DNA from: a bacterium
GTDB lineage: Bacteria > Patescibacteriota > Patescibacteriia > JAACEG01 > JAGUWE01
Direction of reading: 5' to 3'
DNA: 64,000 nt
NCBI GenBank assembly: GCA_043798995.1
Contig: JAZDOD010000010.1
Span: 845-64,844, forward strand
The translations under genes and the position numbers were made by a program. Below the pieces are notes generated by a model. That model worked only from the letters and a program-made list of their open reading frames with translations. It was not told the DNA's origin and searched no databases. Below, one piece after another: positions 585 to 33,577 of the stretch (position 1 is its first letter; the number at the start of each line of letters is the position of its first letter).

Positions 585-711
585 GTCATTGCGACAGCCT
601 GTCCAGAAACTGCCGAATCATACTCTACTGTCATTCCTGCGAAAGCAGGAATCCAGAAAAATAAGATAAATTTCAGATATTCTGGATTCCGCATCAAGTG
701 CGGAATGACAG
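585..711. repeat. MITE-like hairpin element, GTCAT...ATGAC family (copy E1)
   Basis: Termini are 'gtcattgcgacagcc' and 'ggaatgacag'. Internal palindromes are 'gtcattcctgcgaaagcaggaatccaga' and 'tctggattccgcatcaagtgcggaatgac'. It is related to the copies at 36113, 36668 and 49962. The ORF-track ATG at 705 lies inside this repeat. Confidence 0.7.
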
Positions 712-812
712 TTTATAGACAGGCTGGCGGCAATCTCACGGGAAGCTGCAGGCTGACCCGTGTTCGCTGGTCACTAATGCTCCCGCTGAGAATTTTGAAT
801 TTGGTTAAGCTT

Positions 813-3800
813 ATGTTTTCTAAAAATACAGACAAAAAATTTTATAAAAAGAAAATATATTTGCTAACTTTTGGTTTTTTAATTGGTTTTGGTTTTTTTC
901 TTTTGGCTAAGACGGCACTAGCTCAATTCGGCCTGGAATACGCCACGGCTTCTGGCTTGGGTACGCGCGGACTTAAACAAACTGTTTTTACCGTCATTAA
1001 TGTTCTCTTGGGTTTCTTGGGCATTGTGGCCCTCGTTATTGTGATGTATGGCGGTTTTGTTTGGATGACAGCCGGCGGCAATCAGGAAAAGGTTTCGCGA
1101 GCCAAGAAAATTTTATTAAATGGCTTAATTGGCCTGCTTTTAATTTTAACTTCTTGGGGGATTGCCAATTTTGTTTTGGGCCAGCTTTGGGGAGCAACCG
1201 GCGGTGGCGGACCAACCCCGGGTTCGCCTTGTGATTGCGTGACAGAACTTGGAATTTGTTCCGGGTGTTTGCGTTGTCAGAATACAGGCGGACCGGGTGT
1301 TTGCACCTGGCAGAATGATGTAACTTGCGACCCGACTTGTTTTGGCTTGCCCGGCGCCAAGACCTTTTACGCTCAAAAATTCCAGCCAACTTCGCCGCCG
1401 GATGCCATTCGCAACGCTGTAGTCAGAATTACCTTTAAAGGAGTAAATACTTCAAGCCAGCCCGGAGCCATTAATTATGGTACGAACTTTTCCGTGATAG
1501 ATGTGACCGGCGGTAATGTTTTAGTCAATCCTGATGCGGCCGGTAGTTATCCTAAGGTGGTTGGCAACCGCTTGGAATTTAAGCCCGACACTAACTGTCC
1601 GCCGCCCAATGCCAGTTATAAATGTTTTAATAGCAATAATGATTATCAAATTGTTATTAGTAATTTACCGCCCAACACCGCCGTGATTTCCAATACGGCC
1701 GGCATTAATATTAATTGTATTTTAGGAGCTGGCTGCCAAGCTAATTTTCGCACCAATGATATTGTTGACACCACGCCGCCGCAGATCAGCGTTTCAACTT
1801 TAAGCCAAATTTGCGCCGGTACAACCAATACGGTTTATGCCAATGGCAAAGATGATTCTGGCATTGCTTATGTTGAATTTTATTACGACGATGGCAGCGG
1901 CGACGCTTTAATTGATACTGATAATGCACCAAACTGTCTTGGTGTACCACCTAATGTTAATTGTTCAGCCCAGGTTAATTGGGATACTTCAGGAGACCCT
2001 GATCTGGTGGCCGGCGGTACCGCCTTTCTCAAAGCCAAAGCTATGGATTTGGATTCCAATGAAGGTAATTCAGCCAATTATAAAGTGACTTTGCGGGCGG
2101 CTCATTGCTGTAACAGCATTCAAGATATGGATGAAGAAGCGATTGATTGCGGCGGAACCGACTGCGCGGCTTGCGCCGGCGCTAATTGCGATATTGATAT
2201 GCCAACCCCGGGCTGCCAACCTGACGATATGGTTTGCGCTTCAATTTTTTGCGATCCAAGTCCTGGCCCGAACGAGTGCAAATGCCAGCAGCCGCCGATT
2301 ATTGACTGGGTCCAGCCGGCCGGTGGTTTTTGCGACGGCTCAATCAATACTCCGTGCAACGATAATGCTGATTGTTCTACTTTTATTCCTAATACATGCA
2401 ATAATACCGATCCTAATGGCCGGCCGGGTAATTTTGTCACCATCGGCGGCAGATTTTTTGGCACGACATCCGGCACGGTTAATTTTAGAGGAGCCGCTGG
2501 CTGGATTATGGCTCTTCCCCCTATTTCAGTTAATCCGGCCTGTCCTCCTGACACTTGGACTGATCACGAGATTGTGGTAGCCGTGCCTAACGGGGTAGTT
2601 AATGGCCCTATTCAAGTTGAAACAGCCGCCGGTTATACTGACCAGACCGCCGATACGCGCGGACCGCTGGTTCCTGATTTTCTTGTTAATACTATTACTC
2701 GTCCCGGGCTTTGCCAGGCCGCGCCAAATAGCGGCCCTTACGCTACCTTAGTTAATTTGACCGGTGTGCGTTTTGGCCCGGCTGCAACTTCTCGGACCAT
2801 AGAATTTGGCAATGAAACGAGTTTTGTGCCCGGAGAAAACATTAACTGGATAAATAACGAAAACGCTAATGTTACCGTGCCTAATCTTCGGCCGGCAGAT
2901 GTCGGGCTTAGGATTAAAACAGATGATATTTACAGCAATTATTTGTCGTTTAGGGTTTTGCCCGGCACGGCCGGTGGGCCGTATATTTCTTATCTTGACC
3001 CTGTTAGCGGGCCGGTCGGACAATACATGACGATTTTTGGCGGTAATTTTGGCAATCAAGTAGGCACGGTTAAGTTTATTGATGGCGGCGCAAATGAAGT
3101 TAACGCCGATGTTAATTTTCCCAGCGAGTGTTTAAATAATTTTTGGCACAATAATTATATTATTGTCAAAGTGCCCAGTGCGGCCGGAGTAAACGACGTA
3201 AAAGTTATCACCCAAGCCGGCAAAGAAAGTAATGTTGTACCATTCACCATAACAGCCGGCACTCCTGGGCCGGGCATTTGCGCTCTGATTCCTGATAACG
3301 GTCCGGTTGGCACAACAGTTGATTTTTTTGGCGATAATTTTGGCGGAGCCCTGGGCCAGATAATTTTTCATAATAGTGTTTCCGCCCCCATTACCTCGTG
3401 GGCTAACCAGTCAATTAAGAGTTCAGTTCCTTTAGGCGCGGTAACCGGCCCGGTTTTTGCCCGCCGTGGCGGTCAGCCGTCAAATCAAGTGCCTTTCCGG
3501 GTCGGAGCTTGTCAGGATTCTTCCCAATGCCAAGCGGGCGAGGAGTGCTGCGAGGACAAGACCTGCAGGATAACTTGTCCGGAAAAAGTGGAAGCAATCT
3601 ACGGCTGGAGCTTTACCACCGGCGATTATTTTGTGGCTCAAAATTGTATTCGGGACATAGAGATTCCCGCGACCGGGCCAAAAGGCGGCAATATTTGCGT
3701 TAATGCCCAAATTGCCGTGCGTTTTACCACTACAGTTAATGATGCTTCTGTGCCACCTAATGTTGTAGTTGAAAGATGTGATAATGATGAATGCACTACG

Positions 3801-6800
3801 GTAAGTCCAGTTGCCGGAAATGTGACTATGGTTACTTTAGCCACCGATCCGGTGACTGAGGGCTTTACTTTTACGCCCAGCATTATAGTTTTATTTGATA
3901 CAAACACAACTTATCGCGTGACGCTCCGGGGCGGACCCGGCGGCATTGAAGACGAAAGCGGCACGCCGCTTATTGATGATTTTTCCTGGACTTTTAAAAC
4001 CAGAAACGACGGCCGCCAATGCGAGATTGATAAAATCAATGTGGCGCCGAATAATTCTAAATTAGTGCTGATGGGCGCTACCCAGGACTACGTGGCTCTT
4101 ATTACGGCCAAAGAAGATCCCTGCCTTTTGATTGATCCCAAGGGCTATACTTGGGCTTGGGAGTCAAGCAAACCCGAAGTTGCTCAAATTTCTGGGTTTA
4201 CTGTCAATACTGCTACAGCTGTGGCTATGGGAGCTGGTTCGACCGATATCATTGCCAAAATTCCTTCAGAAAATAAATCAGGTAAAGCCATCCTCACGGT
4301 TGATCTTTCCGGCCTCCAGGTTTTAAACGCCGTGCCTAAATGCGATACAACCTGCACCAATGCCCAGATTAGGGCGCGCTTTAGCAACTGGGTTGATGAC
4401 AATACTTTGGCCGGCAATCTTTTTATCTATCAGTGCCCGAATAAGGTCTGCGGTTCAGGTTTTACGCCCGTGGCTTTGAACGGCGCCAATCCTTATGATT
4501 ATTTCTGGAATGGTTTGACCGGCGATTCGCTTTTGGACATTAATCAGGCCGCTAATTTTAACCCCAATACTTTTTATCGGGTGATTATCAAAGGCGGCCC
4601 AGCCGGTATTAAAAATTATTTAGGCGGGGGACTTTCTAATCCGAATTATAAATCATCCGCGGGCGAGGAATGCGAACCACCCGGTTTCCCGGGTTGTAGT
4701 GCGAGTTGTTTACACACCAGCGGCGAATGTACGCCTGGCTCTTTAGGTTGTAATGGCGCAGGGCTTCATACCGGTTCAATCGGTTCAAGCTGCGGCAATG
4801 GCGCGGTTGAGCCGGCACGGGGAGAAAATTGCGATCCTAGCGCTCCTGGCTATGGGCCAAGTGGTTGTGATAGTACAACATGTTTACTCAAAGGTAGTAT
4901 TTTTCCAGCTATTTGTGGCGACAGTTCCACGCCGGATAGGGTTCACGGTGAGGCCTGCGATGATAGAAATCAGACAGCCGGCGACGGTTGTTCGCCAAAA
5001 TGTTTGCGCGAAGGCACAGTGGCGCCAATTTGCGGCGATGGAAATATTGATCTTGGCGAGGACTGCGATGATGGAAATATTACTAACGGCGATGGCTGTT
5101 CGGCTAAATGCCTTGCTGAAGGAGCGATCGGCTCGGTTTGCGGCGACAGAAGAGTCGGCCTTGGCGAGGATTGCGACGACGGCAATACTGCGCCAAATGA
5201 CGGCTGTTCAGGCAGTTGTTTAAGCGAAGGCGCAACTGGTTTGGCAGTTTGCGGCAATAATGTAGTTGAAGATGGCAAAATTAATGATAGCTATTCCTGG
5301 GTTTTTGGCGTGGGCAATGCCATTTGTCAGCCCTTGCGAAGCGAAGTGGTACCAGCTAACCTTACCACCATTATAGGCAAAACCATAGATTATTTGGCTA
5401 ATGTTTATAGCTTGGCTGATGAATGCTCGCCCACAGGGCAATTATTGGATGCCGACGATTATCCTTGGGAGTGGACAACTAACAATGCTTTTGTGGCCGA
5501 TTTTGATCCGCCGCTTCCATTACCGCCTCATCCTCCGCGAGAAACGGTCAAAACCCTGAACGTTGGCAATGCCCAGATTTGCGCTTCGGCTGACACAACA
5601 ACGCCTCCGGATGGAACTTATGATCTTCAGGACTGCGCTGATATTGTGGTGCAAAATCCGGGCCCTCGGCGTTGCCAGCAATCGGGCAATGCTTGCTGTG
5701 CCAATGGCGTATCAAGTTGCGAGCCGGCTTATAAATGTCTGGAAAATCAGAGCTTGCCAGCTTGCCCTTGGTCGCCCGGCTTTTTTCAGGATTGCCTTTG
5801 TTGTTGCGATCCAACGGATGATAAGTGTCCGGCCCCGCTTTCCTGCTACGCTGACAAAGCTCCTTGCGCGGGCGCTAACCGCGGACTTTGCTGCGGCTGT
5901 AAGCAAGACAGCGAATGCCCTGACCCGATAGGTGAGGGCTGCGGCAGTGACAAGTGTTGCCATAGCCGTCCGGCCGTTGCAGCTACTCTGCCGGCGAATA
6001 ATGATGCCAATATCTGTCGCAATCTTAAAATCAGAGTTGACTTTGATCCGCTTGAGCCAATGCAGACCTCAAGTTTTGTTGGTAAAGTAGAAATGATAAA
6101 AATGAGCGACAGCAGTGCAGTTAAAGGGATGACTTCTTCAGCCGGTAACACTATTTTATATTTTAGTCCACAAAGTATTTTAGAACCACAAACCCAATAT
6201 CGCGTTACGATTAAAAAGGAGGTCTTAAGCATTTATAAAGTAGCAATGGCGGCTGATTATATTTTTTCCTTTACTACAGGCGATATCATCTGTGAGGCCG
6301 ATTATTTAAAAGTTTCAATCCAGCATGATGCCGATCTTTTTGTCACAACTAATAAAGATCTTTTCACTTGCGCCAAGACCAGCGGTTGTATCGATGATAC
6401 CAATACAACCATCTTGCCTCCTGATATACCTGACAATCAGCACCTTTATTTAGCCGAAGCCATGGATATGACCGGCGTGGTTTTAACCGGCTATGATTAT
6501 AATTGGCAGACCACTGACCCCGATGATATTGTTAATCCTAATACTTGGGCTTTAAATTCAATTACCGTTACGGCTAATAATAAAAAAGGCCGGACGACCT
6601 ATAATGTTAAGGCTACGCCACAACTCACTTCTGGCAATACCGCCGCTGTTTCTAACTATGTTTATGTGACTAACTTTATTTGCGAGAATCCTTGGCCGGC
6701 GGTTAATAATTGGCCTTGGATTGATGATTCGGTTTTAAATCCAAATTCAATTTGCAATACCCCCGGTTGCTTTAACGTTAATACTCAATTCCAAATAATG

Positions 6801-6923
6801 TATTGCCGCGATGCTGGCGGCCCGGGCCCAGCCGATGATCTGCCGGAGTTAAAATGGGATCCGCCGCTCATTCCCGGCCAAAGCGGAAATCTTCTCAAAG
6901 AATTTTATTTTGTGGTACCGTAG
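813..6923 (+). CDS. Giant (~2,035 aa) secreted/membrane-anchored cysteine-rich surface protein. It has an N-terminal signal peptide plus two hydrophobic helices (VirB2/TrbC-like topology), IPT/TIG-like beta domains, about 5 tandem 'Myxococcus cysteine-rich repeat' units (CGDG..GEDCDDGN..DGCS.KC) and Cys-rich EGF-like modules
   Basis: Long ORF. The likely true start is the ATG at 813 (MFSKNTDKK...), because the upstream ATG at 705 is inside repeat E1. Repeats 'ICGDGNIDLGEDCDDGNITNGDGCSAKCLAEG' recur about 5 times around 4,900-5,270. There is no stop codon for 6.1 kb. Confidence 0.75.
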   Translation: MFSKNTDKKFYKKKIYLLTFGFLIGFGFFLLAKTALAQFGLEYATASGLGTRGLKQTVFTVINVLLGFLGIVALVIVMYGGFVWMTAGGNQEKVSRAKKILLNGLIGLLLILTSWGIANFVLGQLWGATGGGGPTPGSPCDCVTELGICSGCLRCQNTGGPGVCTWQNDVTCDPTCFGLPGAKTFYAQKFQPTSPPDAIRNAVVRITFKGVNTSSQPGAINYGTNFSVIDVTGGNVLVNPDAAGSYPKVVGNRLEFKPDTNCPPPNASYKCFNSNNDYQIVISNLPPNTAVISNTAGININCILGAGCQANFRTNDIVDTTPPQISVSTLSQICAGTTNTVYANGKDDSGIAYVEFYYDDGSGDALIDTDNAPNCLGVPPNVNCSAQVNWDTSGDPDLVAGGTAFLKAKAMDLDSNEGNSANYKVTLRAAHCCNSIQDMDEEAIDCGGTDCAACAGANCDIDMPTPGCQPDDMVCASIFCDPSPGPNECKCQQPPIIDWVQPAGGFCDGSINTPCNDNADCSTFIPNTCNNTDPNGRPGNFVTIGGRFFGTTSGTVNFRGAAGWIMALPPISVNPACPPDTWTDHEIVVAVPNGVVNGPIQVETAAGYTDQTADTRGPLVPDFLVNTITRPGLCQAAPNSGPYATLVNLTGVRFGPAATSRTIEFGNETSFVPGENINWINNENANVTVPNLRPADVGLRIKTDDIYSNYLSFRVLPGTAGGPYISYLDPVSGPVGQYMTIFGGNFGNQVGTVKFIDGGANEVNADVNFPSECLNNFWHNNYIIVKVPSAAGVNDVKVITQAGKESNVVPFTITAGTPGPGICALIPDNGPVGTTVDFFGDNFGGALGQIIFHNSVSAPITSWANQSIKSSVPLGAVTGPVFARRGGQPSNQVPFRVGACQDSSQCQAGEECCEDKTCRITCPEKVEAIYGWSFTTGDYFVAQNCIRDIEIPATGPKGGNICVNAQIAVRFTTTVNDASVPPNVVVERCDNDECTTVSPVAGNVTMVTLATDPVTEGFTFTPSIIVLFDTNTTYRVTLRGGPGGIEDESGTPLIDDFSWTFKTRNDGRQCEIDKINVAPNNSKLVLMGATQDYVALITAKEDPCLLIDPKGYTWAWESSKPEVAQISGFTVNTATAVAMGAGSTDIIAKIPSENKSGKAILTVDLSGLQVLNAVPKCDTTCTNAQIRARFSNWVDDNTLAGNLFIYQCPNKVCGSGFTPVALNGANPYDYFWNGLTGDSLLDINQAANFNPNTFYRVIIKGGPAGIKNYLGGGLSNPNYKSSAGEECEPPGFPGCSASCLHTSGECTPGSLGCNGAGLHTGSIGSSCGNGAVEPARGENCDPSAPGYGPSGCDSTTCLLKGSIFPAICGDSSTPDRVHGEACDDRNQTAGDGCSPKCLREGTVAPICGDGNIDLGEDCDDGNITNGDGCSAKCLAEGAIGSVCGDRRVGLGEDCDDGNTAPNDGCSGSCLSEGATGLAVCGNNVVEDGKINDSYSWVFGVGNAICQPLRSEVVPANLTTIIGKTIDYLANVYSLADECSPTGQLLDADDYPWEWTTNNAFVADFDPPLPLPPHPPRETVKTLNVGNAQICASADTTTPPDGTYDLQDCADIVVQNPGPRRCQQSGNACCANGVSSCEPAYKCLENQSLPACPWSPGFFQDCLCCCDPTDDKCPAPLSCYADKAPCAGANRGLCCGCKQDSECPDPIGEGCGSDKCCHSRPAVAATLPANNDANICRNLKIRVDFDPLEPMQTSSFVGKVEMIKMSDSSAVKGMTSSAGNTILYFSPQSILEPQTQYRVTIKKEVLSIYKVAMAADYIFSFTTGDIICEADYLKVSIQHDADLFVTTNKDLFTCAKTSGCIDDTNTTILPPDIPDNQHLYLAEAMDMTGVVLTGYDYNWQTTDPDDIVNPNTWALNSITVTANNKKGRTTYNVKATPQLTSGNTAAVSNYVYVTNFICENPWPAVNNWPWIDDSVLNPNSICNTPGCFNVNTQFQIMYCRDAGGPGPADDLPELKWDPPLIPGQSGNLLKEFYFVVP

Positions 6924-6967
6924 TTCGTCATTCTGATCCGCCAGTTGGCGGAGAAGAATCCCGAACA
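6924..6967. repeat. Short hairpin element 'ttcgtcattctga-ccgccagttggcgg-agaagaatcccgaaca' (GTCATTCTGA sub-family)
   Basis: Shares both end motifs with the B units at 7289-7331 and 7411-7452. It has a central palindrome 'ccgccagttggcgg'. Confidence 0.65.
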
Positions 6968-6972
6968 GTTTT

Positions 6973-7260
6973 ATGAAAGAGAACTTTTATGTTTACATTG
7001 CCACCAATAAACGAAATACCGTTTTTTATACTGGGATAACCAGTGATTTGGCAAAAAGAATGTGGCAACATAAACAGAAAGAGGTCAAAGGTTTTACTAG
7101 TAAATATAACATTAACAAATTAGTCTATTACGAGATATTTTCCAATCCCCAAGAGGCAATAGCAGCTGAAAAGAAAATCAAAGGTTGGACAAGAAAAAAG
7201 AAGATTGATTTAATCAAAGAGATTAATCCTGAATTTAAAGATTTGTCAGAAGAACTATAA
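6973..7260 (+). CDS. GIY-YIG nuclease family protein (UPF0213-like, 95 aa)
   Basis: 'FYVYIATNKRNTVFYTGITSDLAKRMWQHK...GFTSKYNINKLVYYE' matches the GIY-YIG catalytic module. The gene is bracketed by repeat elements on both sides. Confidence 0.8.
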   Translation: MKENFYVYIATNKRNTVFYTGITSDLAKRMWQHKQKEVKGFTSKYNINKLVYYEIFSNPQEAIAAEKKIKGWTRKKKIDLIKEINPEFKDLSEEL

Positions 7261-7495
7261 TGAGATCCTTCACTGCGTTCAGGATGACTACTTTTTTCGT
7301 CATTCTGAGCGGAGCGAAGAATCCCGAACAACATTAAAGGGGATCCTTCACTGCGTTCAGGATGACAAGAGAAGATGTTCAGGATGACAAGAGAAGATGC
7401 GTAGGATGACTACTTTTTTCGTCATTCTGAGCGGAGCGAAGAATCCCGAACAAGATCGGATGGGATCCTTCACTTCGTTCAGGATGACCACCCTC
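7261..7495. repeat. Composite array of two repeat units: A = 'gatccttcactgcgttcaggatgac' (x3), B = 'tacttttttcgtcattctgagcggagcgaagaatcccgaaca' (x2)
   Basis: Direct sequence repetition at 7264/7342/7466 (A) and 7289/7411 (B). The ORF-track ORFs 7128..7334(-) and 7357..7590(-) are translations of these repeats and are not called as genes. Confidence 0.75.
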
Positions 7496-7510
7496 AGCAC
7501 AAGATAGTCA

Positions 7511-9763
7511 TTGGCCCTATTGGGCAAAAGTAAATTTATCCATTCTATGTTAGTAAGACAAAAAACCAAACGAAAAAAATTAATGCGCAAAAATCGTTCA
7601 CAACTATTATTAGTTGTTAGTTGTATGTTGTTAGCATTATTGGTTGGTTTTGGTTTTTACTATCTTAACCTTAATTTTAAAAATTTTATCTTCTCAGCCC
7701 CCGCCCAGGCCCAAACCGAAAGCGCCCTGGCCATTCGCGTCTTCAAAAATCCCGACCACCTCTCGCCCGAACAATGGTACAAGGAAAATGTGCCTCACCC
7801 AAGCAATCCGCAGTCAACCGTGATTGATGGCTATCAAGCCATCCGCGATGGCCGCAGCATTTATGTCTCGGCCGCCAACTTAAACACCGTTGACAACCAG
7901 CTTCACTCCAACATTTATTTAATTTCCTACAGCGAAGGCGCTTCTACTGCCGCCCAAAAGATTTTTGAGGGAGTTTTGGCTAATTGGCAGTTTAACAGCA
8001 ATATACCGCCTAATAATGCAGGCAAAGTTTGCTCCAATGATTACACCACGGTCTGCAGCCAGGATAAGGATTGTCCCACAGGCGAAACTTGCTTAAACAT
8101 TGAGCCCAAACCCCGCCTCACCCGCGACGTGAAGCGACTGGCTGATCTCCAAGATATCCGCCAAGAACTGGAAGATTACAATTATCAAGCCGGCTCTTTT
8201 CCGACTTTAAGCTCCGGCACTTACATTCCCAAACTTTCTTTTTCCGTCTGGCCCAGCTGGGAAAAAACTTTGGGGCAAAACTTGGGTTCAACCTTACCCG
8301 CTGATCCAATTAACCGATTGATGGGCTGTACTAATCCGTATGACCCAACCACTTGTTGGGATAACAAATCTTTAGCTTTTCAGTGCCCCGGCAACTATTA
8401 CATTTATGCCTACCGATCGCCAACTCTTTCCGGCGACCAAGCCAAACTTTACACCAAATTAGAATACCGCGATCAAACCTGGGCCTCAACTTTAGATATT
8501 TTAACTAACCCCCAAGAATTATTAGATAATATATTAGCTAAGTGTCTGCTTAATTTTGGCCAAAATACCAATGATTATGATAATGATACTGTGCCTAACG
8601 GCGATGATAATTGTCCGACCATTCCTAATACGACCCAAACTGATTCAGAAGTTCCAATAAAAGACGGTATTGGCGATGCCTGCGACGCCTGCCCCAATGA
8701 CGCGCAAAACGACCAGGACAACGACGGTTATTGCCTCGGGCTGGCCAGTTTAGTTTTTGGCGACAAAAAAAGCAATGACAATTGCCCCACTATTTACAAT
8801 CCCAGCCAGCAGGAAAATCCAGCTATCCCAGGCACGGGTTTGGCTTGCTCGCGCTGTCAGGACGCTGATAGTGACAGCTATTGCTCTTATGCGACCGGCG
8901 GCGATGATTGTGATGACACAAAGGCTGATATTCACCCAGGCGCGCCAGAATTTTTCAATGGCCTTGATGATAACTGCGACGGCCGGATTGACGAATGCGA
9001 AAAAACAGTCGGCTTTAATGTTACCACGTCATTCGGCACGACTCAAGTAGCCCAGGCTTTTAGCTTGGACAAAGACGTCGAAGATCTTTACTCTTATGCC
9101 AGCGCCTCTGCTTATATATTTGAGTTTGATTATAATAAAGATGGCTGGGCTGATTGGTATCAAAGTCAAGCGAGCAATATTTTTATTTATCATAGCCGGA
9201 TCAGCAATCGTCTTTATTTAGGAATAATTCATAATATGGAACAGGGGGGCACTGGCACTGCTGATCTTGGCTTTTCAGGCCTGCCAGCTGACGCCACCTT
9301 TGTGATTAAGGATGACCCCAACCACGCCCCCGATACTTATAGCTTAACTCAAATTACACATGGCTGGAGCAAAAATAGCGACGGCGCCATAATTGACTTG
9401 GGGCCAGCCAGCCGGCCTTGGACAATCACTATTACCAACAATGGTTTTGGTGGCGTCGGTCCCGACCCGATTAATAAGTGGCGCCTGGCTTATCCGCGCT
9501 TCAACGGCATTAACTATATTGGTTTAGATATGGCCGCCGCCTCCTGGGTCAGGTTAGAATACGGCGGCAGCTTGAACCAGTCCATTCCCTGTTATAATGG
9601 CCCAGCGGGGACCGAAGATGTCGGGATTTGCCATGGAGGGTTTGCCACCTGTCAACTAACCGGGCTTTTAGGGACGTGCGTGGGTGAGGTTGTGCCCCAG
9701 ATAGAAAAATGCGGCAATGGCATTGATGAAGATTGCAATGGCTCTGATCTTGTTTGTGCATAA
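7511..9763 (+). CDS. Secreted cysteine-rich protein with thrombospondin-type-3-like Ca-binding repeats (DNDTVPNGDDNCP.., DQDNDGYC) and MopE-like 'putative metal-binding' CxxC...DDCDD..PGA.E.CDG.D motifs
   Basis: N-terminal hydrophobic segment after a basic stretch (start may be the internal Met at 7547 or 7583). The TSP3-like aspartate-rich repeats and the terminal 'CGNGIDEDCNGSD' are read directly from the translation. Confidence 0.6.
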   Translation: MALLGKSKFIHSMLVRQKTKRKKLMRKNRSQLLLVVSCMLLALLVGFGFYYLNLNFKNFIFSAPAQAQTESALAIRVFKNPDHLSPEQWYKENVPHPSNPQSTVIDGYQAIRDGRSIYVSAANLNTVDNQLHSNIYLISYSEGASTAAQKIFEGVLANWQFNSNIPPNNAGKVCSNDYTTVCSQDKDCPTGETCLNIEPKPRLTRDVKRLADLQDIRQELEDYNYQAGSFPTLSSGTYIPKLSFSVWPSWEKTLGQNLGSTLPADPINRLMGCTNPYDPTTCWDNKSLAFQCPGNYYIYAYRSPTLSGDQAKLYTKLEYRDQTWASTLDILTNPQELLDNILAKCLLNFGQNTNDYDNDTVPNGDDNCPTIPNTTQTDSEVPIKDGIGDACDACPNDAQNDQDNDGYCLGLASLVFGDKKSNDNCPTIYNPSQQENPAIPGTGLACSRCQDADSDSYCSYATGGDDCDDTKADIHPGAPEFFNGLDDNCDGRIDECEKTVGFNVTTSFGTTQVAQAFSLDKDVEDLYSYASASAYIFEFDYNKDGWADWYQSQASNIFIYHSRISNRLYLGIIHNMEQGGTGTADLGFSGLPADATFVIKDDPNHAPDTYSLTQITHGWSKNSDGAIIDLGPASRPWTITITNNGFGGVGPDPINKWRLAYPRFNGINYIGLDMAAASWVRLEYGGSLNQSIPCYNGPAGTEDVGICHGGFATCQLTGLLGTCVGEVVPQIEKCGNGIDEDCNGSDLVCA

Positions 9764-9854: not shown

Positions 9855-10700
9855 ATGATTGATTTAAAAAAGAAAATTAAATTACTAAAAGAATATTTTT
9901 TTCGGCGGTCAGAGGTTTTGATGGCGTTTGTTTTTGGCTCTCAGGCAAAAAAGAAGGCTGGTAAAATTTCTGATTGGGATATTGCCATTTATTTTCAACC
10001 GTGCTCAAAAGAGATAGAGTGGGAAAGCAACCGCCGTTATCCTCAAGAAGAAAAAATTTGGCTTGATTTAGTTGAACTGCTGGAAACTGATCAAGTTGAT
10101 TTAGTTGTTCTCAACCGAGCTTCAGCCAGCGTGGCAGCTTCAGCTCTTCAAGGCCTACCTTTAATAATCAAAGACCGTCAGCTTTTTCTTGAATTTATGT
10201 TAATTGTTAGTCGGGAAGCCGAAGATTATCGCCAAACTGCCAAAGAATACGCCGAGATTTACTGGCGCTCCTCTTCACTAAGTGAAGAAGATAAATACAT
10301 CCTTAATCGACGAGTTATTTTTCTTGATTCAGAATTAAAAGATGCAGCTAAATTCCGCGAGCTTAATCAGTTAGAATATGAAAAAGATAGCACCAAAAGA
10401 AGGGAAGTGGAGCGTTGGATTGAAAACTTGATCAATGCGGCCATTGATATTACAAAAATTATTTTAGCCAGCCAGAAGCGACCGATTCCCTCGACTTACA
10501 AAGAAGTTCTTCGAGCACTTGAAATTTTACCCAATTGTCCAAAAAATTTAGGAGAACAACTGGCTGTTTGGGCGGAACTGCGTAATATTCTGGCTCACGA
10601 GTATTTAGACATTCGCTGGCGGCGGATTGAAGATTTTATTAAAAAAAGCGAATCTTATTTTCAAAATTTAATCAAAATGGTCAAAGAAAATTTTCTTTAA
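9855..10700 (+). CDS. Single-chain fusion of a MntA-like nucleotidyltransferase (N-terminal) and a HepT/DUF86-like HEPN RNase domain (C-terminal); toxin-antitoxin-like
   Basis: N-terminal 'FVFGSQAKKKAGKISDWDIAIYF' matches the Pol-beta NTase G[SG]x(9-13)DxD motif. C-terminal 'LRNILAHEY' matches the HEPN/HepT Rx4HxY motif. 281 aa is about MntA plus HepT. The gene has its own TATAAT upstream at about 9811. Confidence 0.6.
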   Translation: MIDLKKKIKLLKEYFFRRSEVLMAFVFGSQAKKKAGKISDWDIAIYFQPCSKEIEWESNRRYPQEEKIWLDLVELLETDQVDLVVLNRASASVAASALQGLPLIIKDRQLFLEFMLIVSREAEDYRQTAKEYAEIYWRSSSLSEEDKYILNRRVIFLDSELKDAAKFRELNQLEYEKDSTKRREVERWIENLINAAIDITKIILASQKRPIPSTYKEVLRALEILPNCPKNLGEQLAVWAELRNILAHEYLDIRWRRIEDFIKKSESYFQNLIKMVKENFL

Positions 10701-15621: not shown

Positions 15622-15729
15622 ACAAATTCTAAACTTTAAATCACAAATTCTAAACGGTTTGGAATTTAAAAAATTGGAATTTTGAATTTGTTTAGGATTT
15701 AGAATTTCGGATTTAGGTATTTTTTTATT

Positions 15730-16994: not shown

Positions 16995-17381
16995 ATGAAA
17001 ATAAAAAATTTTGAGGATCTGAATATTTGGAAGTTAAGCTTAAAAATAACCAAGGAGATTTATGACTTAACTTCTAAAAGCGGTTTTTCTCATGACTTTG
17101 CTTTGAGAGATCAGATAAGAAGAGCCATTATTTCTGTTAGTTCTAATATCACGGAAGGATTTGAAAAAAATAACAACAATGAATTCATTCGTTATCTTAA
17201 AATCTCAAAAGGATCAACTGGCGAGGTTAGAAATCAACTTTATATCGCCTTGGCGGTAAATTATATTACTCAACAAGAATTTGAAAAGGTTAATCAAGAA
17301 TTAATATCTTTAGCCAATCAGATCGGGAAGTTTATTAGTTATTTAGAAATAAGAAGAAAATTAACCCGCCAAACCCGTTAA
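16995..17381 (+). CDS. Four-helix-bundle protein (23S rRNA intervening-sequence protein family, TIGR02436-like), copy 1
   Basis: 'DQIRRAIISVSSNITEGFEKNNNNEFIRYLKISKGSTGEVRNQLYIA'. The gene is flanked by inverted repeats at 16972-16994 and 17363-17389. Confidence 0.75.
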   Translation: MKIKNFEDLNIWKLSLKITKEIYDLTSKSGFSHDFALRDQIRRAIISVSSNITEGFEKNNNNEFIRYLKISKGSTGEVRNQLYIALAVNYITQQEFEKVNQELISLANQIGKFISYLEIRRKLTRQTR

Positions 17382-18165: not shown

Positions 18166-18218
18166 TACGTTTTCGTCATTAAGGGTAATTTGTGATATAA
18201 TTTTAACAAGGGAGGATT

Positions 18219-18376: not shown

Positions 18377-18739
18377 ATGAGACGTTACTATAAATCTCAT
18401 TTAAGAAATATTTCCAGAAAACTTAGAAGTAATATGACCGAAGCAGAAATAAAACTCTGGAATAGAATTAGAAAAAAACAAATTAACAATTTTCAATTTT
18501 ATAGACAAAAACCGTTAGGTAAATACGTGGCGGATTTCTATTGCCCGGTTAAGGAGTTGGTCATTGAAATAGACGGAGGACAACGTTACGACGAAGCCGG
18601 AGAAATCACAAGGGAAGATAAAGAAAAAGAAAATTATCTTAAAAATATTTTAAAATTAAAAGTAATAAGATTCACTAATATTGAGATAACGAAGAATTTA
18701 GACGGTGTGGTAAATAGTTTAATAGAAGAATTAAAGTAA
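18377..18739 (+). CDS. DUF559 endonuclease-domain protein (Vsr-like fold)
   Basis: 'EAEIKLWNRIRKKQINNFQFYRQKPLGKYVADFYCPVKELVIEIDGGQRY...LKVIRFTNIEI' matches the DUF559 signature (W..LR, FrRQ, DFyc, LvIEiDG, lRf.N). Confidence 0.8.
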   Translation: MRRYYKSHLRNISRKLRSNMTEAEIKLWNRIRKKQINNFQFYRQKPLGKYVADFYCPVKELVIEIDGGQRYDEAGEITREDKEKENYLKNILKLKVIRFTNIEITKNLDGVVNSLIEELK

Positions 18740-23093: not shown

Positions 23094-26000
23094 ATGTCAA
23101 CAAGTAAAAATAAAAACACTTTTTGCTTTTCCCTACTAAAATTTAACCGAATTGTTAAGCCCTTATTAATGACTGGTATTTTTTTATTTTTTCTTTTTCT
23201 AAATTTTTTGCCCTGGCCGGCTAAAGCGGTAGAGATTAGTAATTTTAATCTTTCTCCCGGATGCGATAATAAGACTGATAATCCCGTCAACTGTGTGCCT
23301 GGTCAGATAGTAATAGAAGCGAGATGGGCAGCCCTAGATAATGCACTTTGCCCGACCGTGTCGGAAAATAAATGTTACTATAGAATTTTAAGAAAAGAAA
23401 GCTCGCCCACAGGGAGTTTTGTGACTTTAGTTAGCAACTTAACTTATATAAGCGGTGCTTCGGCAGTTTGGCGAGATACCGGCGGCGGATCTTATCCCCT
23501 GAAAGAAAGAACCAACTACACTTATAAAATAGAAGCTCGTGACGCCAGTGGCGGAACAATTTATGGCACCAGCGGCGAGAAAGAGACAATGAGCAAGGTT
23601 TGCGGCTGCCCGCACCCGTTTGTTTTATATGGAGCCAGTAATGATTGTGACGGCAATATTTCTCAAATCGGATTAAGTTGGCAAGAAACTGCCATTGAAG
23701 TGAGAGACGGGCGTGGGACTTCCATTTTAGCGCCTCACTACGGAATTTATCGTTGGAATGGTCCTTGCAGCAGCTCAAGTTGTTATGACCCTTCTAATGC
23801 AGTCGGATTTATTGATCGAGCCATTGCCTGTCAGGCTGGTAAATGTTTTTTTGTTGACGGCAATAATTCTGCCAAACGGCTCGAATTCAATAAAAGTTAT
23901 TATTATAAAGTAGTAGCTTATAGTGAGGGCGCGGAGAGAGCTTCTGCCAATCAATTAACACCAATAGCTGCTTTTTGTCCTAAACCCGTAATTCCCTCTA
24001 ATAGTGCCACGCCGCCCGGCTTAGAGCTTGACTGTAATCCCCTACAATTGAAATTAAGATGGGATGATTGCGCTGGCGCAACTAATCCTGCGGCCTGTCA
24101 GCAAAGTCGGCTTAACGTCCCTATCTTTTATAATATTTATAAAAATACCAATGAGAATGGCTATATTTGGATTAATTCACTGGCTGCCAATTCTTCCCAA
24201 TCTCCTTGCCAGTGGCAGAGCAACAAATTTAGTTGTCAATTTAGTGACAGCATTAAAAGTAATTTTAGCTATAGTTATTATGTTAAGGCAGCTGGCCAGG
24301 GCTGGACTTTAGACAGCAATTATAGCGAACTACTGACAATAATACCAGGCGCCTGCGCCGTTCAGATTAATCCGCCTGATTATCTATGGGTTACGCCTTT
24401 TTGCGATTCGCTTGATAATAATAAACCCAAGATGACTTTAAGCTGGGGTTACACTGCCACTCCGCCGGCTAATATCAGACGCTATTATATTCATAAATAT
24501 CGTTGCACTAATCCCCCAACTTGTAGCAGCTGGCAAGCCATTACCAAAGACGGGAATACAACTTATTACGATAGTTATAACACTACAGCCGAAGATGTGA
24601 TTTGGGTTGACGGTTCTCAAAGTTATCATACAGTGATTGCCGGTGAAACTTATCGTTATCAAGTGAAAACCGAAACTACCGACGGAGTCAGTAATCCTAC
24701 CCCCCCCAGCACTTCGGTCAAAGCTCGTGAAGATTGCGTTTCGCCGCCTCATACAGCTACTCCGGTTTTAACCTTGGGAGCTAGTTGTTCTAATTTAGCC
24801 CCGGTTATGATCTTAAATTGGACGCCGCCCAAAACCGACGGCAATGGCGACGGCAATAGCGACGGCACTACCGACGATATTTTTGTTTATCATATTTTAA
24901 AAAACGGCGTACTTTATACTGATACCGCCAATTCTGATTCTTATATAGACACATTCAACGTTAGCCCTGGCCAGCCGTATTATTATCAAATTATTGCCGA
25001 TGGGCCAGGCGGCCCAGCGGCTTCCAATCTTACCCCAACGGTAGTTAGCCGAGACGATTGCAATAAACCCACGCCTTTTAAATTAATCACCGTGGCTAAA
25101 AGTTGTCTTCCGCCGAGTCAGCATCAAGTTTATTTGGATTGGCAAAACTCATCTAATCTTAGCCGTTACGAAGTTTTTAGAAAAGCGACCAATAGCCCCC
25201 CTGATTGTACTACCAGCGAAGGGCGACTTTCGGCCGGCCTAATTACCAATCTTAATGTCACTAACTTTACTGATACTGAAAACTTAGTCGAAGGCGCGAC
25301 TTATTATTATTTTATCAGGGCTTCGGTTGACGGCGGCAGCTGTACTTTAGCCACCCTAGCCAGCGGCGTGAGCAATGCCGTGACCATTCCTTATACCACC
25401 CCAGGCCAGCCGAGCGGTCTTGCCGCTACGCCCCAGTGCTTAAATAGCTGGCAAAGCAGTATCCGCCTTACTTGGACAGTTGATCCCGCCGTAGCCAGTT
25501 ATAAGCTCTGTTACAATACTTCGCCGGCGGTGACCGAAGCTAATTGCACCCAGTCCTTACTTTCTACTGGTTCTTATGATTTCACCAATAATGTTACAGT
25601 TGGTCAGAATTATTATTTTGCCATTCAGGCCGATAGCGGTTGTGCCAAAAGTTTGTCAGCCGTGGTGGGGCCAACAACGGCTCGTTGTTGCCCGCCACCA
25701 AGTTTTTCCATAAACGGCACGGCAACCTGCCAATCAACGGCCGCGGCCCAACATACCCTTTCTTGGACTACTCATTCCTCGGCTGAAAGCTATGAGGTTT
25801 TTCAATCAGCCAATAATCTTGACTTTTCTTCTTTAGGTTTGCGGGTTTCACCTTTTAATACCTTAGTTGGCCCAAATAACACCTTTTACTATTTTGTCCG
25901 AGCCAAAGCTACTTGTGGATTAGAATATACTAATTCTAATACTTCTCAACTGGCGATTAATTGTCTTCAGTCCGCCAGTCCAACCTTAACCTTGAGCAGC

Positions 26001-29000
26001 ACCAGTTGTATTGGTGGCTATCCGGCTATTGCCTTTAGCTGGAGCCAATCAGCCAATGCCACTTCTTATAGCATTTATCGCTGCCAAGGAACTAGTTGCC
26101 CGCCCAACACAGAGATTAAAAGCGGTTATAATGGGACAAGCTATAATGACATAGGTGGCGAAGGTCAAGCACCCATAAGCGGCAATCTTTACAGTTATCA
26201 GATTAAAGCCATCAATGCCAATAGTAATAGTTTTAATCTTTCTAATTCTATCCAAAATATTTCAGCGCCTTATTGTCCGCCCGGTCCTTTTATTTTATCT
26301 TCCGCAACTAATTGCGATCCAGTGGCGAATAGGCCGATTTTTAAACTTAAATGGACCAAGGCGGCTGAACCAGCGACTTTGGATAAATATAAAATTTATC
26401 GGGTGACGGGCTTTATTTCCGGCCGAGGGCCAAGCGATCCAGTGGTAGCAGAAAAAGCCGGCACTTTTTTTGACCAATGGTGGACTGATGATACATTTCC
26501 GCCCGGCGAACCAATCAATGACCAAAATTATTCTTATTATGTTGAAGCCGTAGCCAAAAATAATGCCGGTTCTTCCTATTCTAATATTGTCAATTTGAAA
26601 AAGGACTGCCAAGGCCCGACCGGGACTTTGGCTTTAACCGCTAATGCCTCTTGTGATGCCAATGACGATCCTTATGTTGATTTGGACTGGACAATGAGCA
26701 ATTTGACTGATGTGGCCTCTTACAAGCTTTATCGGGGGGGCCAATTAATTTATACCGACGCCACTATTTCGGCCGTGGAAACTTATCCCGATTCCAATAT
26801 CGAAAGCGGTTCTTCTTATAATTATGCGGTGAGGGCGTGCGACCAAAATAATTTATGTACCAGCGATTCGGTCGTCAATAATGTTTCAGCGCCTTATTGC
26901 CCGGTCGGTATTCCGGCTGATTTGCAAGTCGGTGCTATTTGCCAAGAAGTAGATTTGCCCGCGGTTAATTTAAGCTGGCAGCCGGCCAAAAACGCCACCC
27001 AGTACACCGTTGTCAGAAAGATAGGAGGGGTCATTAATAAAACTTACTCGGTTACCGCTACTTCTAAATCAGATAATGAGGTGGTGGGCGGGACAACTTA
27101 TACTTATCAAATCATTGCCAAAAATCCAGCTAATTTGTGTGCTACCAATGATTGTGCCGTTTGTGCTGGCCAATGTTCAACTGTCCAAACCGCCTCGGTG
27201 CCTACTTGCGGGGTTAGTGAGCCGGTTCTTTTTGCTGACAGATATTGTAGCGGAGAAGGAGTGCCGGCTGATTTAAAGTGTTTTAGTCAGGGTGATCAGT
27301 ACGGCACTTATGCTCATTTTTGTTGGACAGCTGACGAATCAGCGGGAGCGCCGCTTTGGTGCCGCCTAGAAAGACAAACTCCTGAAGGCTGGTGGCTGGT
27401 TAAAACCCCGACTTTTCATAGCCAGGGGATATACGATTCTGGTTCTTCTACCGTTGATAATATTGCTACAACTCAAAGGAATAATATTACTAATCGAGCT
27501 TATTCAGCGCTTAGCTTTTATGATTTTTATGAGTCAGTCGTGCTGGGTCGGAGTGGCGTCAGTATGGTTCCTTCGCGCATCCAGCTTCTAGCCGGCATTT
27601 ATCCGGTCGGACCTTATCCTGAAGCTTCCCGGAATGTGACTTTGGACTTTTGGTTTAAAATTGGTCCTTACTCTTGTCTTACTAATAGAGATGATTTATT
27701 TTATTCGTTCCTTTGGAAACATAGCGGCGATCAAACTCAACCAGATTTTAGAATATCTTATAATGCTATTAACAACGGTGGTTATCAAGATGACTTAGTG
27801 ATGCTGAAAACAGATGAACTCGTGATCGTTGCTCCTGAGTCAGAAAGAGCAACTTTAATTAATTATCCAGAGCCAGGAGGCGGTTTAACTTGCGATACTT
27901 GGCATCATTTTCTTTGGACCCAAGACCAGACCTCGGGTCAGACCCAGGTTTATCTTGATAAAACTTTAGCTTACAATGGTCTTTGGGGTAGAAATTTTAC
28001 GAGAAATAATAACTTATATTTTGGTTGCGAATCTTTTTTTATGCCTGGCACAGCTAGTTATTTCCGCGTGCCGGAAACAATTTTTGACGAAATTAAAATC
28101 TGGCCGGACAAGATTATAAATAGCCGCCAAGTCCAAAAACTTTATGATCAAGATTACACCAAGCTAACAACATGGCCGGTTTTAAAAAATGTAATAGCTG
28201 TAACAACCTCCGCCGGCGGTTATCACACCTGCGCCCTTCTTGAAGACAAGACAGTTAAGTGTTGGGGGGAAAATGGCTTTGGCCAGCTCGGCCTTGGTAA
28301 TACTAATAGTCCCCAACTTAACCCAGTTTCAGTTCCTAATTTATCTAATGTCAAAGCCGTCGCCGTCGGCTTTTTTCACACCTGCGCCCTTCTTGAAGAC
28401 AAGACAGTTAAGTGTTGGGGGGAAAATTACTATGGCCAAGTCGGTGATGGTACTACTGTTACTCTCGCATTGAGCCCAGTTTTTGTTCATGATGTTAGTG
28501 TTAGTGGTGTTGTTTGGGCTGATTACCACACTTCTTACGATGATTTTGAGACAATTGAAGGCGGGCAATATAATTATCAGGTGACTTGCGGCTACACTGG
28601 CGGAGCAACCAGAACCACACCGGGTAACTTTGCTTTTCCCTGGTGTCAGCCAGACATTGATTTTCCCCAGACCAATGATTTACAAGGCATTTGTTCTGAT
28701 TGGGCCGATAAAAATAAAAATATAGTTGCTGATCAAACAGCTGATTGTTCCGGCGGTTATTCTGATGATACCGAAGAAATTGCGGAATCCAAGTATCAAC
28801 CTCAAGCTCCCTACGCACTGCTGGCTTGGGATTATTTAGGTGGGGCTGAAACTGTTGAAGTTAAAAGATATCAAGAAGGACAATCTGAAACCGAGGCAAT
28901 TACTTTAGCCAGTTTCTCGGTTGATCCGACTGATCCTAATAAGGCGAGCAGTGATATTCAGTGTCCTGAGGGTCATTGTTACTGCCAAGACCGCAGCGTC

Positions 29001-32000
29001 CAAGAAGCTGATCTTTCGCAAAAGTTTCATTACTTTGTTAAAGCTATCGGCCCGCCGCCTAGCAGGAGAGAAGCCAAACTTTATTTTCCCTCAGCTGACC
29101 CAGCTTTGTCTAAATCCTTTGGCCTGACTTGCTCTAATGATTACGGAACTGAAAAATTCTTGCTTTTAAACCCTTGCCAAGCGGGCCAGCCTACAGTCAA
29201 AATCGTTTTAAAGCCAAATAGCGGTCCGGCAGCTAACATTAAGAGCTATTGGGAAGGCAACGCTGAAATTTTAACCATTAGTCAAGGCCTAAGAAGCGTG
29301 ACCAAAGAAGGCGTGGCCTTAAGCGAGGATATGGCAGGCAATGATGATAGCGCGACTCAATTAAACGCCACTGGCTTTGCCAATCCTTATGGTGCGGTTT
29401 CCTGGTCAGCTTTGGGCAACATAAGTACTGACCCCAATCTGTCTCAAGAACCAATAGCCCTTTCAATGTGGGTAAAATTTGACAGTGCTTATCAGGCAGA
29501 AAAAGAAATTTTATTTTATGGCTTAAATCCGGCTTCTGTTTGGTGTGAAGGTTGCGGTGATGAGCCGCAAGAGTATTTAAGATTATCGCGTTCAGGCACG
29601 AGCCTTACTGCAGCTGACGAGGGCGAATTAGAAATTGCTTCGCGGGCGAGCGCCTATGTTGATAAAAGATATTATACTGATTATATTTTATCAGACACAA
29701 CTTCCTGGCATCACTTAAAAGGTGTCTGGCAAAATAATGGCGCTAACAAGAAAATGAAATTTTGGCTGGATTTTAACTTTATTGGCGAGATGATCATTGA
29801 CACCCCTTTTCCCATTCCTGCTACTTCTGGCTATAATATCTATTTAGGCGACCATTATAAAAACAGCGATACCTCGCCTCTAACTCACAATTCTATTACG
29901 GCCAAAGCTCGCCTTGATGAAGTTTATATTTCCAAAGATTCGGGCAATGACCCTTATTATTACGAGATTTTCCGCAAAGCCCCGAGCGAGCAAACTTACC
30001 GGCATTTAGTCACTTTGGATAGCAATGCTTATCAATGGTTTGAAAGGGAATTAACAGCCGAGAGCGAATATGCTTATAAAGTGCGTCTGATTCCGACTGA
30101 TCAAAATAAACTTTCCCTGACTTTAGCTACTTTTGAAAATACACCTGATAATATTATTTTGCCGGCCGACTGCCGGCCCGAATATGGTCCGTTTGACTTT
30201 CAGGCCTTGTCCTCCAGTTGTTTGGCCAGCCAGCCAGTTATTAATTTATCTTGGCAGGACAATAAGGCACCTTCGGCTGAGAACAATTACTCCCTCTTAG
30301 CTGACTTGCCAAGCGGTGTAGTTTATATCTCCATCCCGCCGGCAAATTGCACTAAAAATTCACCCAATGAGCCTTACCAATGTCATTATGTCTATCAGCT
30401 GCCGGCCGAAACTGATTATTTTCACGAGCATATGTTTTATCTTATACGTGAGGCCGAAGAAGACGAAATAGCCAATGGCGCGCCTGATTTTTTCTTAACT
30501 TCTTTAGCCGAAGCAGTCCGACCAGCTCGCTGTTTTGACGAGCTGCCAAAGTGGCCTGATCCTGATAATTTATCTGGCAATGCTTGTTGCGCGGAAAATG
30601 GTCTTTGTACTTCTAACGGGCCAGAGCCAGCTGTTTTCTTAAACTGGCAGGATGCGCAATACACTAATTATTATGAGATTTATCGCTGTCAGTTAGGGGT
30701 CTCGCTTTGCAGTGATTTATCTGATTTTATTTTAATGGGTTCTGTTGAAGAAACAGTGGTCTGTTTAAATGCGGGTAGCCAGACTGGCAGCCTTTGTCGA
30801 TTTGACTGGGAATGCGGCAGTGGCACCTGCGGTGAAACCAGTTATAATTTGACCGATGATCAAGTAGCGGCCGGCGCCACTTATGTCTATCGCATTTTTG
30901 CTTATGGTAATGGCTCTCAAGAGGCCAATAATTCTCTAATTGTTATTACCCCCAGTTTTGGCAGAGAAGCGGGAAATTGTAAATTAATTCCGGCCACTCC
31001 TTTTATTACTAAAATTGAAAGAGGCTGTACTGCCACGGACGAGCCGTTTCATCGGCTATGGTGGGATTATGCTAATCAATATGGCACAGAAGTTGCGCCT
31101 TCGGGCGATCCTAATCCTAATATTATTATTGATCATTGGCTAATTGAAAGACAGCCCCCAAACGGCTCCTTTGATTTAGTTAAAGAATTTTATCCGACTA
31201 ACTTACCCTTGCCTTTGGTGAGCACTAATTTTATCACTCCTTTTAATAATAATTTGGTCGCCGGCCACTTTTATAATTACGGAGTCAAAGCCGTGACTCA
31301 AGTTGATTCAGAATTTTTTGAATCTTATCCTTCGCCGACGGTTGGAGCAATGGCTCCTTTTTGCACTGATCCGCCGAAAAACGATATTTTCAATTTTGGC
31401 ATAGATGAGTACAGTAGTTGTAATAAAATTAGCTTTAAATTCGAGACTGCCGCTGATGATTTTGCCGAGGGTTATGAAATTTATCAACTTGCTAATTTGC
31501 CCAGTTTGGCCAAATTTAATTATCAAAATTGTCAATATAATTATTCAAATTTTTCCCAAGGAGAACTAAAATGTAGCTATTCTTCTTCTTGTAGTTGCGC
31601 TGGCGTGGGCAGTGTTTGTGATTTCTGCAAAAACAAAAAATTAAATGACCAGGGGCTCTTAATTAAAGAGATTATTCAAGCTCGGGGACCGACTACCTAT
31701 ACTTTTGAAGCAGAAAATTTTGCCCAAAACACCACCTTATATTGGGCAGTGGTGCCTTTTAATAGCCGGGGTTATTACGATTCAATCGAGGGCGGTAATA
31801 TTATTCCAATTCAAACTAATCTTTGCGCCCAGGCCCCAATCAGTTCCACCTTTACTGCCGTAAGTAAATGTCCTTCAACCGTTGAGCTTAAATGGAAAAA
31901 CCCCGACGAATCAATTTATGGCTATAAAATTTATCGCAAAAAATTAGAAGAGTCGGATGCCTCTTATCTTTTGTTGGCTGATAAAGACGAGGATAGCAAT

Positions 32001-32234
32001 GAAGTGAAAGAAGCTTGCGATATTCCCAATAAATCATCCTGTTTCAATCTTTATCAAGATGAACTGTCTCAAGCTCTGACCGAGATTTACAAATATAAAA
32101 TTGTCAGTGTTTCCCAACAATTTATTGAGAGCGAAGGTCGAACGTATCTGATCGAAGGCGAGGCCATTAATAAAAACGCTCGCGCCTGTTTCCGCTTGCC
32201 GCGCTGGCAGGAACTGCCGGGAATAACGCCGTAA
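23094..32234 (+). CDS. Giant (3,046 aa) surface protein with an N-terminal signal/TM, many fibronectin-III-like modules, two RCC1-like blades, a LamG/concanavalin-like lectin region and Cys-rich segments
   Basis: Uninterrupted 9.1-kb ORF. Recurrent 'L.W....Y.(I/V)YR' FN3-like periodicity. '[28 protein letters not shown]' occurs twice (RCC1 signature). It has its own promoter. Confidence 0.8.
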   Translation: [3046 protein letters not shown]

Positions 32235-33460: not shown

Positions 33461-33577
33461 AATTTTTAATTTTTAATTTTTAATTTTCAATTAAACCGGT
33501 ACTTTGAAATGGCCGGTTTTTGTGATACAATAACAACAAATCCAAAATCCAAAACTCTAAATACTAAACAAATTCTA

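Follow-up and report, generated by a model that had tools for sequence, protein, structure and literature searches.

A gene for a GIY-YIG nuclease of 95 amino acids lies embedded in short hairpin repeats within a 64,000-nucleotide stretch (hereafter the window) of contig JAZDOD010000010.1 (positions 845 to 64,844; assembly GCA_043798995.1), which belongs to a metagenome-assembled genome (MAG) of Patescibacteria type. Its position directly downstream of a 6-kb surface-protein gene in a type IV pilus locus raises the question of what such a gene and such repeats have to do with each other. Our analysis of the sequence points with considerable confidence to an Ssn/SRM system, in which the repeats (SRM, Ssn-related motifs) would be the recognition hairpins of the nuclease encoded among them. 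Read in this way, the feature is an already described system, and what is new here is its host among the Patescibacteria and a sequence variant of the hairpin.

The gene, ssn (6973..7260, plus strand), encodes a single-domain GIY-YIG nuclease placed in the Ssn family by its Pfam match and its homology to ssnA. It is preceded by a 44-bp near-palindrome, the left SRM hairpin (6924..6967, plus strand), which follows immediately after the stop codon of a gene for a protein of 2072 amino acids (705..6923). The arms of this element (6923-6943 and 6946-6966) show 81% complementarity, its single strand folds with -13.3 kcal/mol (z=-5.65), and the core of the unit (6927-6960) reads GTC-ATTCT-GA-TCCGCC-AGTT-GGCGGA-GA-AGAAT-C. 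On the 3' side of the ssn open reading frame (ORF), a repeat array of 235 bp spans 7261-7495, in which GGGATCCTTCACTGCGTTCAGGATGAC occurs three times (7263-7288, 7341-7366 and 7463-7488) and TTCGTCATTCTGAGCGGAGCGAAGAATCCCGAACA twice (7296-7330 and 7418-7452). The original prediction had recognized a 95-residue GIY-YIG gene with one 44-bp element before it and a 235-bp array after it, and ORF, Pfam and repeat analyses bore out this description. It had also read the array as two alternating units, A in three copies and B in two; the copy counts stand, but the units are a single repeat, since the reverse complement of B (GTCATCCTGAACGCAGTGAAGGATC) is a close variant of A (GTCATTCTGAGCGGAGCGAAGAATC). 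Hence, the gene stands between inverted repeats, beyond which come two inverted doublets.

The right SRM hairpin (7263..7288, minus strand; core 7264-7288, GTCATCCTGAACGCAGTGAAGGATC) is inverted with respect to the left unit. The first gene-less doublet (7296..7366) consists of a plus core at 7299-7323 and a minus core at 7342-7366 separated by an 18-nt spacer, and the second (7418..7488) of a plus core at 7421-7445 and a minus core at 7464-7488. Both doublets are 93% identical, with differences mostly in the spacer, share an identical 10-nt junction (TACTTTTTTC) and have all their GTC ends facing outward. The core motif occurs seven times in 6927-7488, against 1.84 occurrences expected across the whole window, and its total of eight was reached in none of 100 shuffles. 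Three ORFs on the minus strand (6928..7071, 7128..7334 and 7357..7590) run across the repeats, as had been anticipated; they are spurious and have no support as genes. The array also contains a 22-bp tandem duplication on the minus strand (repeats 7355-7376 and 7377-7398) with a third partial copy (7355..7410 in all), which gives rise to two extra outer ends of the minus unit (7377-7388 and 7399-7410). Extra outer ends of this kind, partial copies comprising ~12 nt of the unit (the GTCATYCTGA end), spaced at 14-30 nt and beside complete units, were also observed at six loci of other genomes (L022, L040, L027, L030, L039 and L044).

The characterized member of the family, SsnA of Neisseria meningitidis, is a single-domain GIY-YIG protein of 94 amino acids (CDD cd10448) that binds the hairpin repeat NTS, CGTCATTCCCGCGMAVGCGGGAATCYRG, solely as single-stranded DNA (ssDNA) and cuts it a few nucleotides upstream, being inactive on the reverse strand, on double-stranded DNA (dsDNA) and on RNA (Chenal et al. 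2025, Nat Commun 16:2388, PMC11893778). The window protein matches the Pfam GIY-YIG family PF01541 over residues 5-78 (E=1.3e-18; 67.5 bits, cut-off 22.6); no other Pfam family was matched and no second domain was found. When it was compared by tblastn with PLSDB (7.3 Gb), two N. gonorrhoeae chromosomes listed there among the plasmids were retrieved, at one place per record, with E=2e-13, a value within the E<1e-10 used as the criterion of homology in the published work (PMC11893778). The gonococcal match is a frame of 94 codons surrounded by NTS copies, which we infer to be the ortholog of NMV_0044, and its product is 44% identical to the window protein in pairwise alignment (84.7 bits, E=2e-28). 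In one of these records, NZ_CP119142.1 (L092 589-873), a chromosome of 2.17 Mb entered as a plasmid in PLSDB, the ssnA frame opens with ATT at the expected start, and an ATG at position 594 of L092 is out of frame with it.

The catalytic residues are equally well preserved. Substitutions Y6A, Y17A and E64A each abolish cleavage by SsnA (PMC11893778), and the corresponding residues of the window protein, Y8, Y19 and E66, align with a constant offset of two and are invariant across 21 homologs. The nearest other small GIY-YIG family, UPF0213, reached 26 bits (E=6e-5) with the window protein; its YhbQ-type members (PDB 1ZG2 and 1YWL) are of similar size and share the fold family, but the relation in sequence is distant. 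These weak UPF0213 matches were all that a search of PDB returned, with no solved structure of an Ssn protein. NCBIfam held no model specific to Ssn, and exact-sequence look-ups of the window protein and of P0001 gave no record. Database relatives of the window protein number more than 1,200, with lengths of 92-123 aa among the homologs; the best 120 are 64-100% identical to it and, where a source name is given, come mostly from MAGs of Patescibacteria (CPR). Some annotated homologs end in C-terminal tails such as DSSLRSE or DPSAYASG, which apparently result from translation running on into the right unit.

The association between gene and repeat was followed in 82 non-redundant related loci from other genomes, mostly Patescibacteria (L001, L002 and L012-L091). 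A unit lies within 150 nt upstream of the gene in 77 loci, downstream in 76 and on both sides in 72. The nearest upstream unit is on the plus strand in 72 of 77 cases and the nearest downstream one on the minus strand in 60 of 76. Unit density amounts to 9.7 per kb beside the gene versus 0.51 per kb at distances above 300 nt, a 19-fold enrichment. The association claimed in the original prediction is therefore real, and it had been reported for the family as well, with SRM beside 71% of the homolog genes and on both sides of 42% (PMC11893778). With regard to stem sequence, an upstream ATTCT unit goes with a downstream ATCCT unit in 27 loci and the reverse in 5, in a set of loci that are phylogenetically non-independent. 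Nuclease clade and stem class show a weak trend, proteins of the ATTGC group being 66% identical within the group and 60% between groups, a difference insufficient for a claim of co-evolution. An apparent 75-bp indel between L006 and L007 proved to be an artefact of gene-start calls and of the coordinates chosen.

The repeat itself follows a common plan: GTC is followed by the 5' arm of a 5-bp stem, in most cases by a tandem G.A/A.G, then by a distal stem-loop that varies, by the 3' arm and by a closing C. At the ssn locus, the 5' arms are ATTCT or ATCCT and the 3' arms AGAAT or AGGAT. The order GTC-stem...stem-C holds in all eight units of 6924-7488. When units were anchored on GTCAT alone, the 3' arm fitted the class of the 5' arm in 133 of 137, distributed over six compensated classes: ATTCT/AGAAT (53/55), ATCCT/AGGAT (49/50), ATTGC/GCAAT (17/17), ATTCC/GGAAT (6/7), ATGCT/AGCAT (4/4) and ATCCC/GGGAT (4/4). 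Among 387 units, stem levels 8 and 9, which played no part in detection, pair in 71% and 64%, respectively, level 6 is G.A in 269 and level 7 is A.G in 244 of 386. This covariation of the arms and the pairing at levels 8 and 9 indicate that the hairpin is under selection as a folded single strand. Whole doublets of the array also fold as long ssDNA hairpins in either strand (-15.9/-14.3 kcal/mol and z=-4.1/-3.5 for doublet 1).

Interpretations at the RNA level were considered and set aside. A hammerhead or other ribozyme, suggested by the CUGA...GAA core with its tandem G.A, was rejected, as the CUGANGA box is incomplete and the characterized homolog binds no RNA. A long-range stem in the mRNA around the ORF, cut by RNase III, was likewise discarded: on either strand, pairing of the left with the right unit yields one G.U plus one A.C, and thus no strand signal for such a stem. 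Rfam searches, run over the whole window at the gathering threshold and over 6800-7650 with E<=10, returned chance-level miRNA and lncRNA matches only, and a tRNA scan found none.

A structure-based scan of the window, with expectations drawn from Markov simulations, detected 24 units, against 1.4 expected and a simulated maximum of 6; about 18 of them are convincing, namely those of the ssn array and of six further doublets. An earlier view that the repeats are confined to the ssn site came from a search for GTCATYCTGARCG with up to two mismatches and was abandoned, the pattern being too narrow to reveal these six doublets of other classes. All six are intergenic, have no nuclease gene adjacent and are composed of a plus unit followed by a minus unit with GTC ends outward. 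The first (630..709) lies upstream of the 2072-residue pilin-like gene and folds as ssDNA with z=-8.2; its plus unit, GTCATTCCTGCGAAAGCAGGAATC (630-653), agrees with a gonococcal NTS copy at all but 2 of 24 positions, and its minus unit (685-709) includes the listed ATG of that gene at 705, so that the true start may lie further downstream. The 6.2-kb gene (705..6923), which encodes Ig-like domains and a pilin-like N-terminus, is hence bracketed by this doublet upstream and the ssn array downstream. The doublet at 49989..50119 repeats the 630..709 element in the opposite direction, and its spacer is the reverse complement. Two others stand upstream (36115..36257) and downstream (36672..36815) of gatC, the units of the latter being reverse complements of those of the former. 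The remaining two, at 43029..43144 and 51203..51296, belong to the ATTGC/GCAAT stem class and to the ATTGC and ATCCC classes, respectively. The housekeeping gene gatC (36305..36613) is in this way placed between two mutually inverted doublets, a unit-gene-unit order like the layout around Neisseria genes.

The likeness to the Neisseria system extends from the protein, with its similar size, its 44% identity to the gonococcal product and its catalytic Tyr, Tyr and Glu, to the inverted units around the gene and to the dispersed intergenic units that bracket surface-protein genes. In NTS, three nucleotides 5' of the palindrome control cleavage and the 3' C is the top base for binding (PMC11893778); the window units retain GTC, a palindrome starting with ATTC or ATCC, and the 3' C. 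The differences concern the host, a Patescibacteria-type MAG, Patescibacteria not being mentioned in the main text of PMC11893778, and the units, which in the window have variable distal stem-loops, longer loops and mostly outward-facing doublets. NTS units account for roughly half of all dRS3 copies (PMC11893778). The window arrays are much smaller than those of dRS3 and NIMEs, belong to other stem classes and stand in another phylum. In NIME arrays, short spacers alternate with dRS3, a 20-bp palindrome ATTCCC-N8-GGGAAT.

Several observations weigh against assigning the locus to the Ssn/SRM system. At the place of the tandem G.A/A.G in the window units, the Neisseria NTS has Watson-Crick pairs, and the details of recognition may differ accordingly. 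The right unit on its own (B1) folds weakly as ssDNA (-1.6 kcal/mol, z=0.07). Nuclease activity is attributed to the window protein and its homologs in Patescibacteria by analogy with SsnA of Neisseria, and a role in transformation has been demonstrated in N. meningitidis only. Finally, the published degenerate SRM string, HGTCWYN(0-2)YYVSBRHN(0-5)WNVSBRGN(0-2)RNCYNB, matches none of the window units. This string is a hand-made search aid derived from 29 genomes (PMC11893778); it fits the NTS consensus and fails to match an authentic gonococcal NTS that immediately follows ssnA, and it was therefore treated as a heuristic rather than a definition. Its failure here marks the window units as a sequence variant, distinguished by the tandem G.A/A.G and by longer loops.

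Among other explanations, the one that fares best holds that the cassette of unit, ssn and inverted unit is an autonomous transposon that is currently active, with the GIY-YIG nuclease as its transposase and the gene-less doublets as non-autonomous miniature derivatives, comparable to those of RAYT/REPIN or IS200/IS605. We regard this as improbable, even though a fair number of observations speak in its favor. The architecture is that of an insertion sequence (IS), with inverted units facing outward, and the authors of the family paper themselves likened NTS-ssnA-NTS to such an element, raised an IS-like origin and drew the comparison with REP/RAYT (PMC11893778). The contig of another organism (L001) carries a cassette with 94.7% DNA identity over 342 bp in an unrelated gene context; the two sequences can be aligned from a point shortly before the left-unit GTC onward, and the neighboring gene on L001 shares 30-40% protein identity with a different window gene (23094..32234). 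In Sungbacteria MHQY01000007.1 (L109 1357-1830), an inserted ssn cassette and a single doublet separate atpA from atpG, several genomes or MAGs have two or more ssn copies, doublets are found in either orientation, depending on the site, and left and right units differ systematically (the 27 loci against 5 mentioned above). The atpA/atpG cassette was observed to be stable in ~10 metagenome assemblies.

Against current activity stands the fact that neither an empty site nor a target-site duplication nor an excision junction came to light; a metagenome scan for empty sites with the C-terminus of the 2072-residue protein as query returned 31%-identical relatives only and no units. Identical proteins occur on 20-30 contigs in a single context per organism each time, identical cassette copies in more than one context were not found, and the 64-kb window has a single ssn gene. 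Most paralogs within a genome share 60-80% identity and thus seem to be old copies, and the 10-nt junction common to the two array doublets also fits a local tandem duplication. To our knowledge, no strand-transfer activity has been described for GIY-YIG enzymes. A comparison with REP/REPIN and RAYT shows likenesses as well as differences. Both systems place a single nuclease-type gene between inverted copies of a short hairpin repeat that is also dispersed as intergenic inverted doublets and recognized as a folded single strand, but a GIY-YIG nuclease stands here in place of an HUH/Y1 transposase, the repeat sequences are unrelated, and no rejoining activity is known for the GIY-YIG enzyme.

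The original prediction of a mobile cassette thus finds partial support in the nearly identical copy in an unrelated context and in the atpA/atpG insertion, but not in any empty site, target duplication or identical copy at multiple sites. A mobile cassette is plausible and active transposition is possible, while the sole activity demonstrated in the Ssn family is ssDNA cleavage; the inverted-unit cassette resembles a small mobile element and probably descends from one. A bolder conjecture, which we put forward as an outside chance, is that the cassette is still self-mobilizing in Patescibacteria and represents a new class of transposon, in which a bare GIY-YIG ssDNA nuclease together with host replication or repair would move DNA lying between oriented hairpins, with the doublets as miniature passengers. 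If so, the left/right asymmetry would correspond to functional ends and the partial end duplications to footprints.

Far less probable is that the hairpins are ordinary REP-like intergenic terminators or mRNA-stabilizing elements that adjoin the nuclease gene by coincidence. Units do occur at operon boundaries where no nuclease gene is present, the long hairpins formed by doublets are stable, and a T run precedes the first doublet. The 19-fold enrichment beside ssn, seen together with a fixed rule of orientation in 82 loci of many lineages, refutes such a role as the sole explanation; moreover, the conserved GTC and C outside the stem are unneeded by a terminator, no Rfam family was matched, and published experiments on the Ssn family show binding and cleavage to be specific (PMC11893778). 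A secondary role of the hairpins as terminators may nevertheless exist. The original prediction had considered the association coincidental should the repeats be ubiquitous REP-like elements with no enrichment near nuclease genes; they are indeed dispersed, as the six gene-less doublets attest, but the lack of enrichment is contradicted, and dispersal and gene association coexist in this repeat family. Least credible of all, and already largely refuted, is the suggestion that the gene is a free-standing GIY-YIG homing endonuclease that cuts a dsDNA target in alleles lacking the cassette and is propagated through recombinational repair, since beyond the common GIY-YIG domain and a weak match to the NCBIfam group I intron endonuclease model TIGR01453 (E=0.004; 17 bits, cut-off 56) it has to contend with 95 residues that make up the nuclease domain alone without a DNA-binding module, a characterized homolog that spares dsDNA, and dispersed gene-less doublets and covarying stems that it leaves unexplained.

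Other small genes of the window also lie within repeats. Genes for PilM, PilB, PilC, pilin and prepilin peptidase identify the window as a type IV pilus locus, and the original prediction had likened the ssn arrangement to that of a DUF559 gene (18377..18739), which lies between multi-hairpin repeats (18218-18374 and 18737-18848) that are 90-98% identical. The resemblance holds loosely, as a gene among hairpin repeats, but those repeats are direct and unrelated in sequence to the SRM units, and the unit scan found none there. Three genes of the four-helix-bundle type 23S_rRNA_IVP were noted (16995..17381, 32281..32646 and 33509..33946), of which those at 32281 and 33509 are flanked by repeats rich in AAATCC/GGATTT, with similar repeats at 15592-15720; these genes with their repeats are another type of small-gene-in-repeats cassette of the locus. 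Downstream of the array, the listed TTG start at 7511 of an ORF of 750 amino acids (7511..9763) probably lies too far upstream; a signal- or TM-like N-terminus (MRKNRSQLLLVVSCMLLALL...) begins with an ATG at 7584. A 281-residue ORF at 9855..10700 combines nucleotidyltransferase (Polbeta/NTP_transf_2) and HepT-like RNase domains.

Should the protein of the window act as SsnA of N. meningitidis does, DNA that becomes single-stranded, for instance after uptake through the type IV pilus and ComEC or at replication forks, would expose folded units to which the nuclease binds. The strand bound would be the one reading GTC...C, and the cut would fall a few nucleotides 5' of GTC, the complementary strand, duplex DNA and RNA being left alone. 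Each of the plus units (6927, 7299 and 7421) and minus units (7288, 7366 and 7488) would accordingly direct a cut in its own strand just outside the element. The likely consequence would be a fragmentation of unit-bearing ssDNA during uptake or replication and less recombination of incoming DNA across unit-flanked genes, in this locus probably the 6.2-kb pilin-like gene and gatC among others.

For the window itself, the outcome is mainly one of annotation: the ORF would be named ssn and the repeats its recognition hairpins. Beyond this, the data would extend the Ssn/SRM system, the first family of site-specific nucleases described as acting on ssDNA only, to the ultra-small Patescibacteria, which have been reported to be naturally competent, with DNA uptake through pili and ComEC, and in which the family is abundant and highly conserved. 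Since the published string misses this variant of the hairpin, genome surveys based on it would undercount Ssn/SRM in this part of the tree. The setting in a pilus locus, with units around a 6-kb pilin-like gene, would mirror what is known from Neisseria, where the units gather around surface-protein genes and influence transformation.

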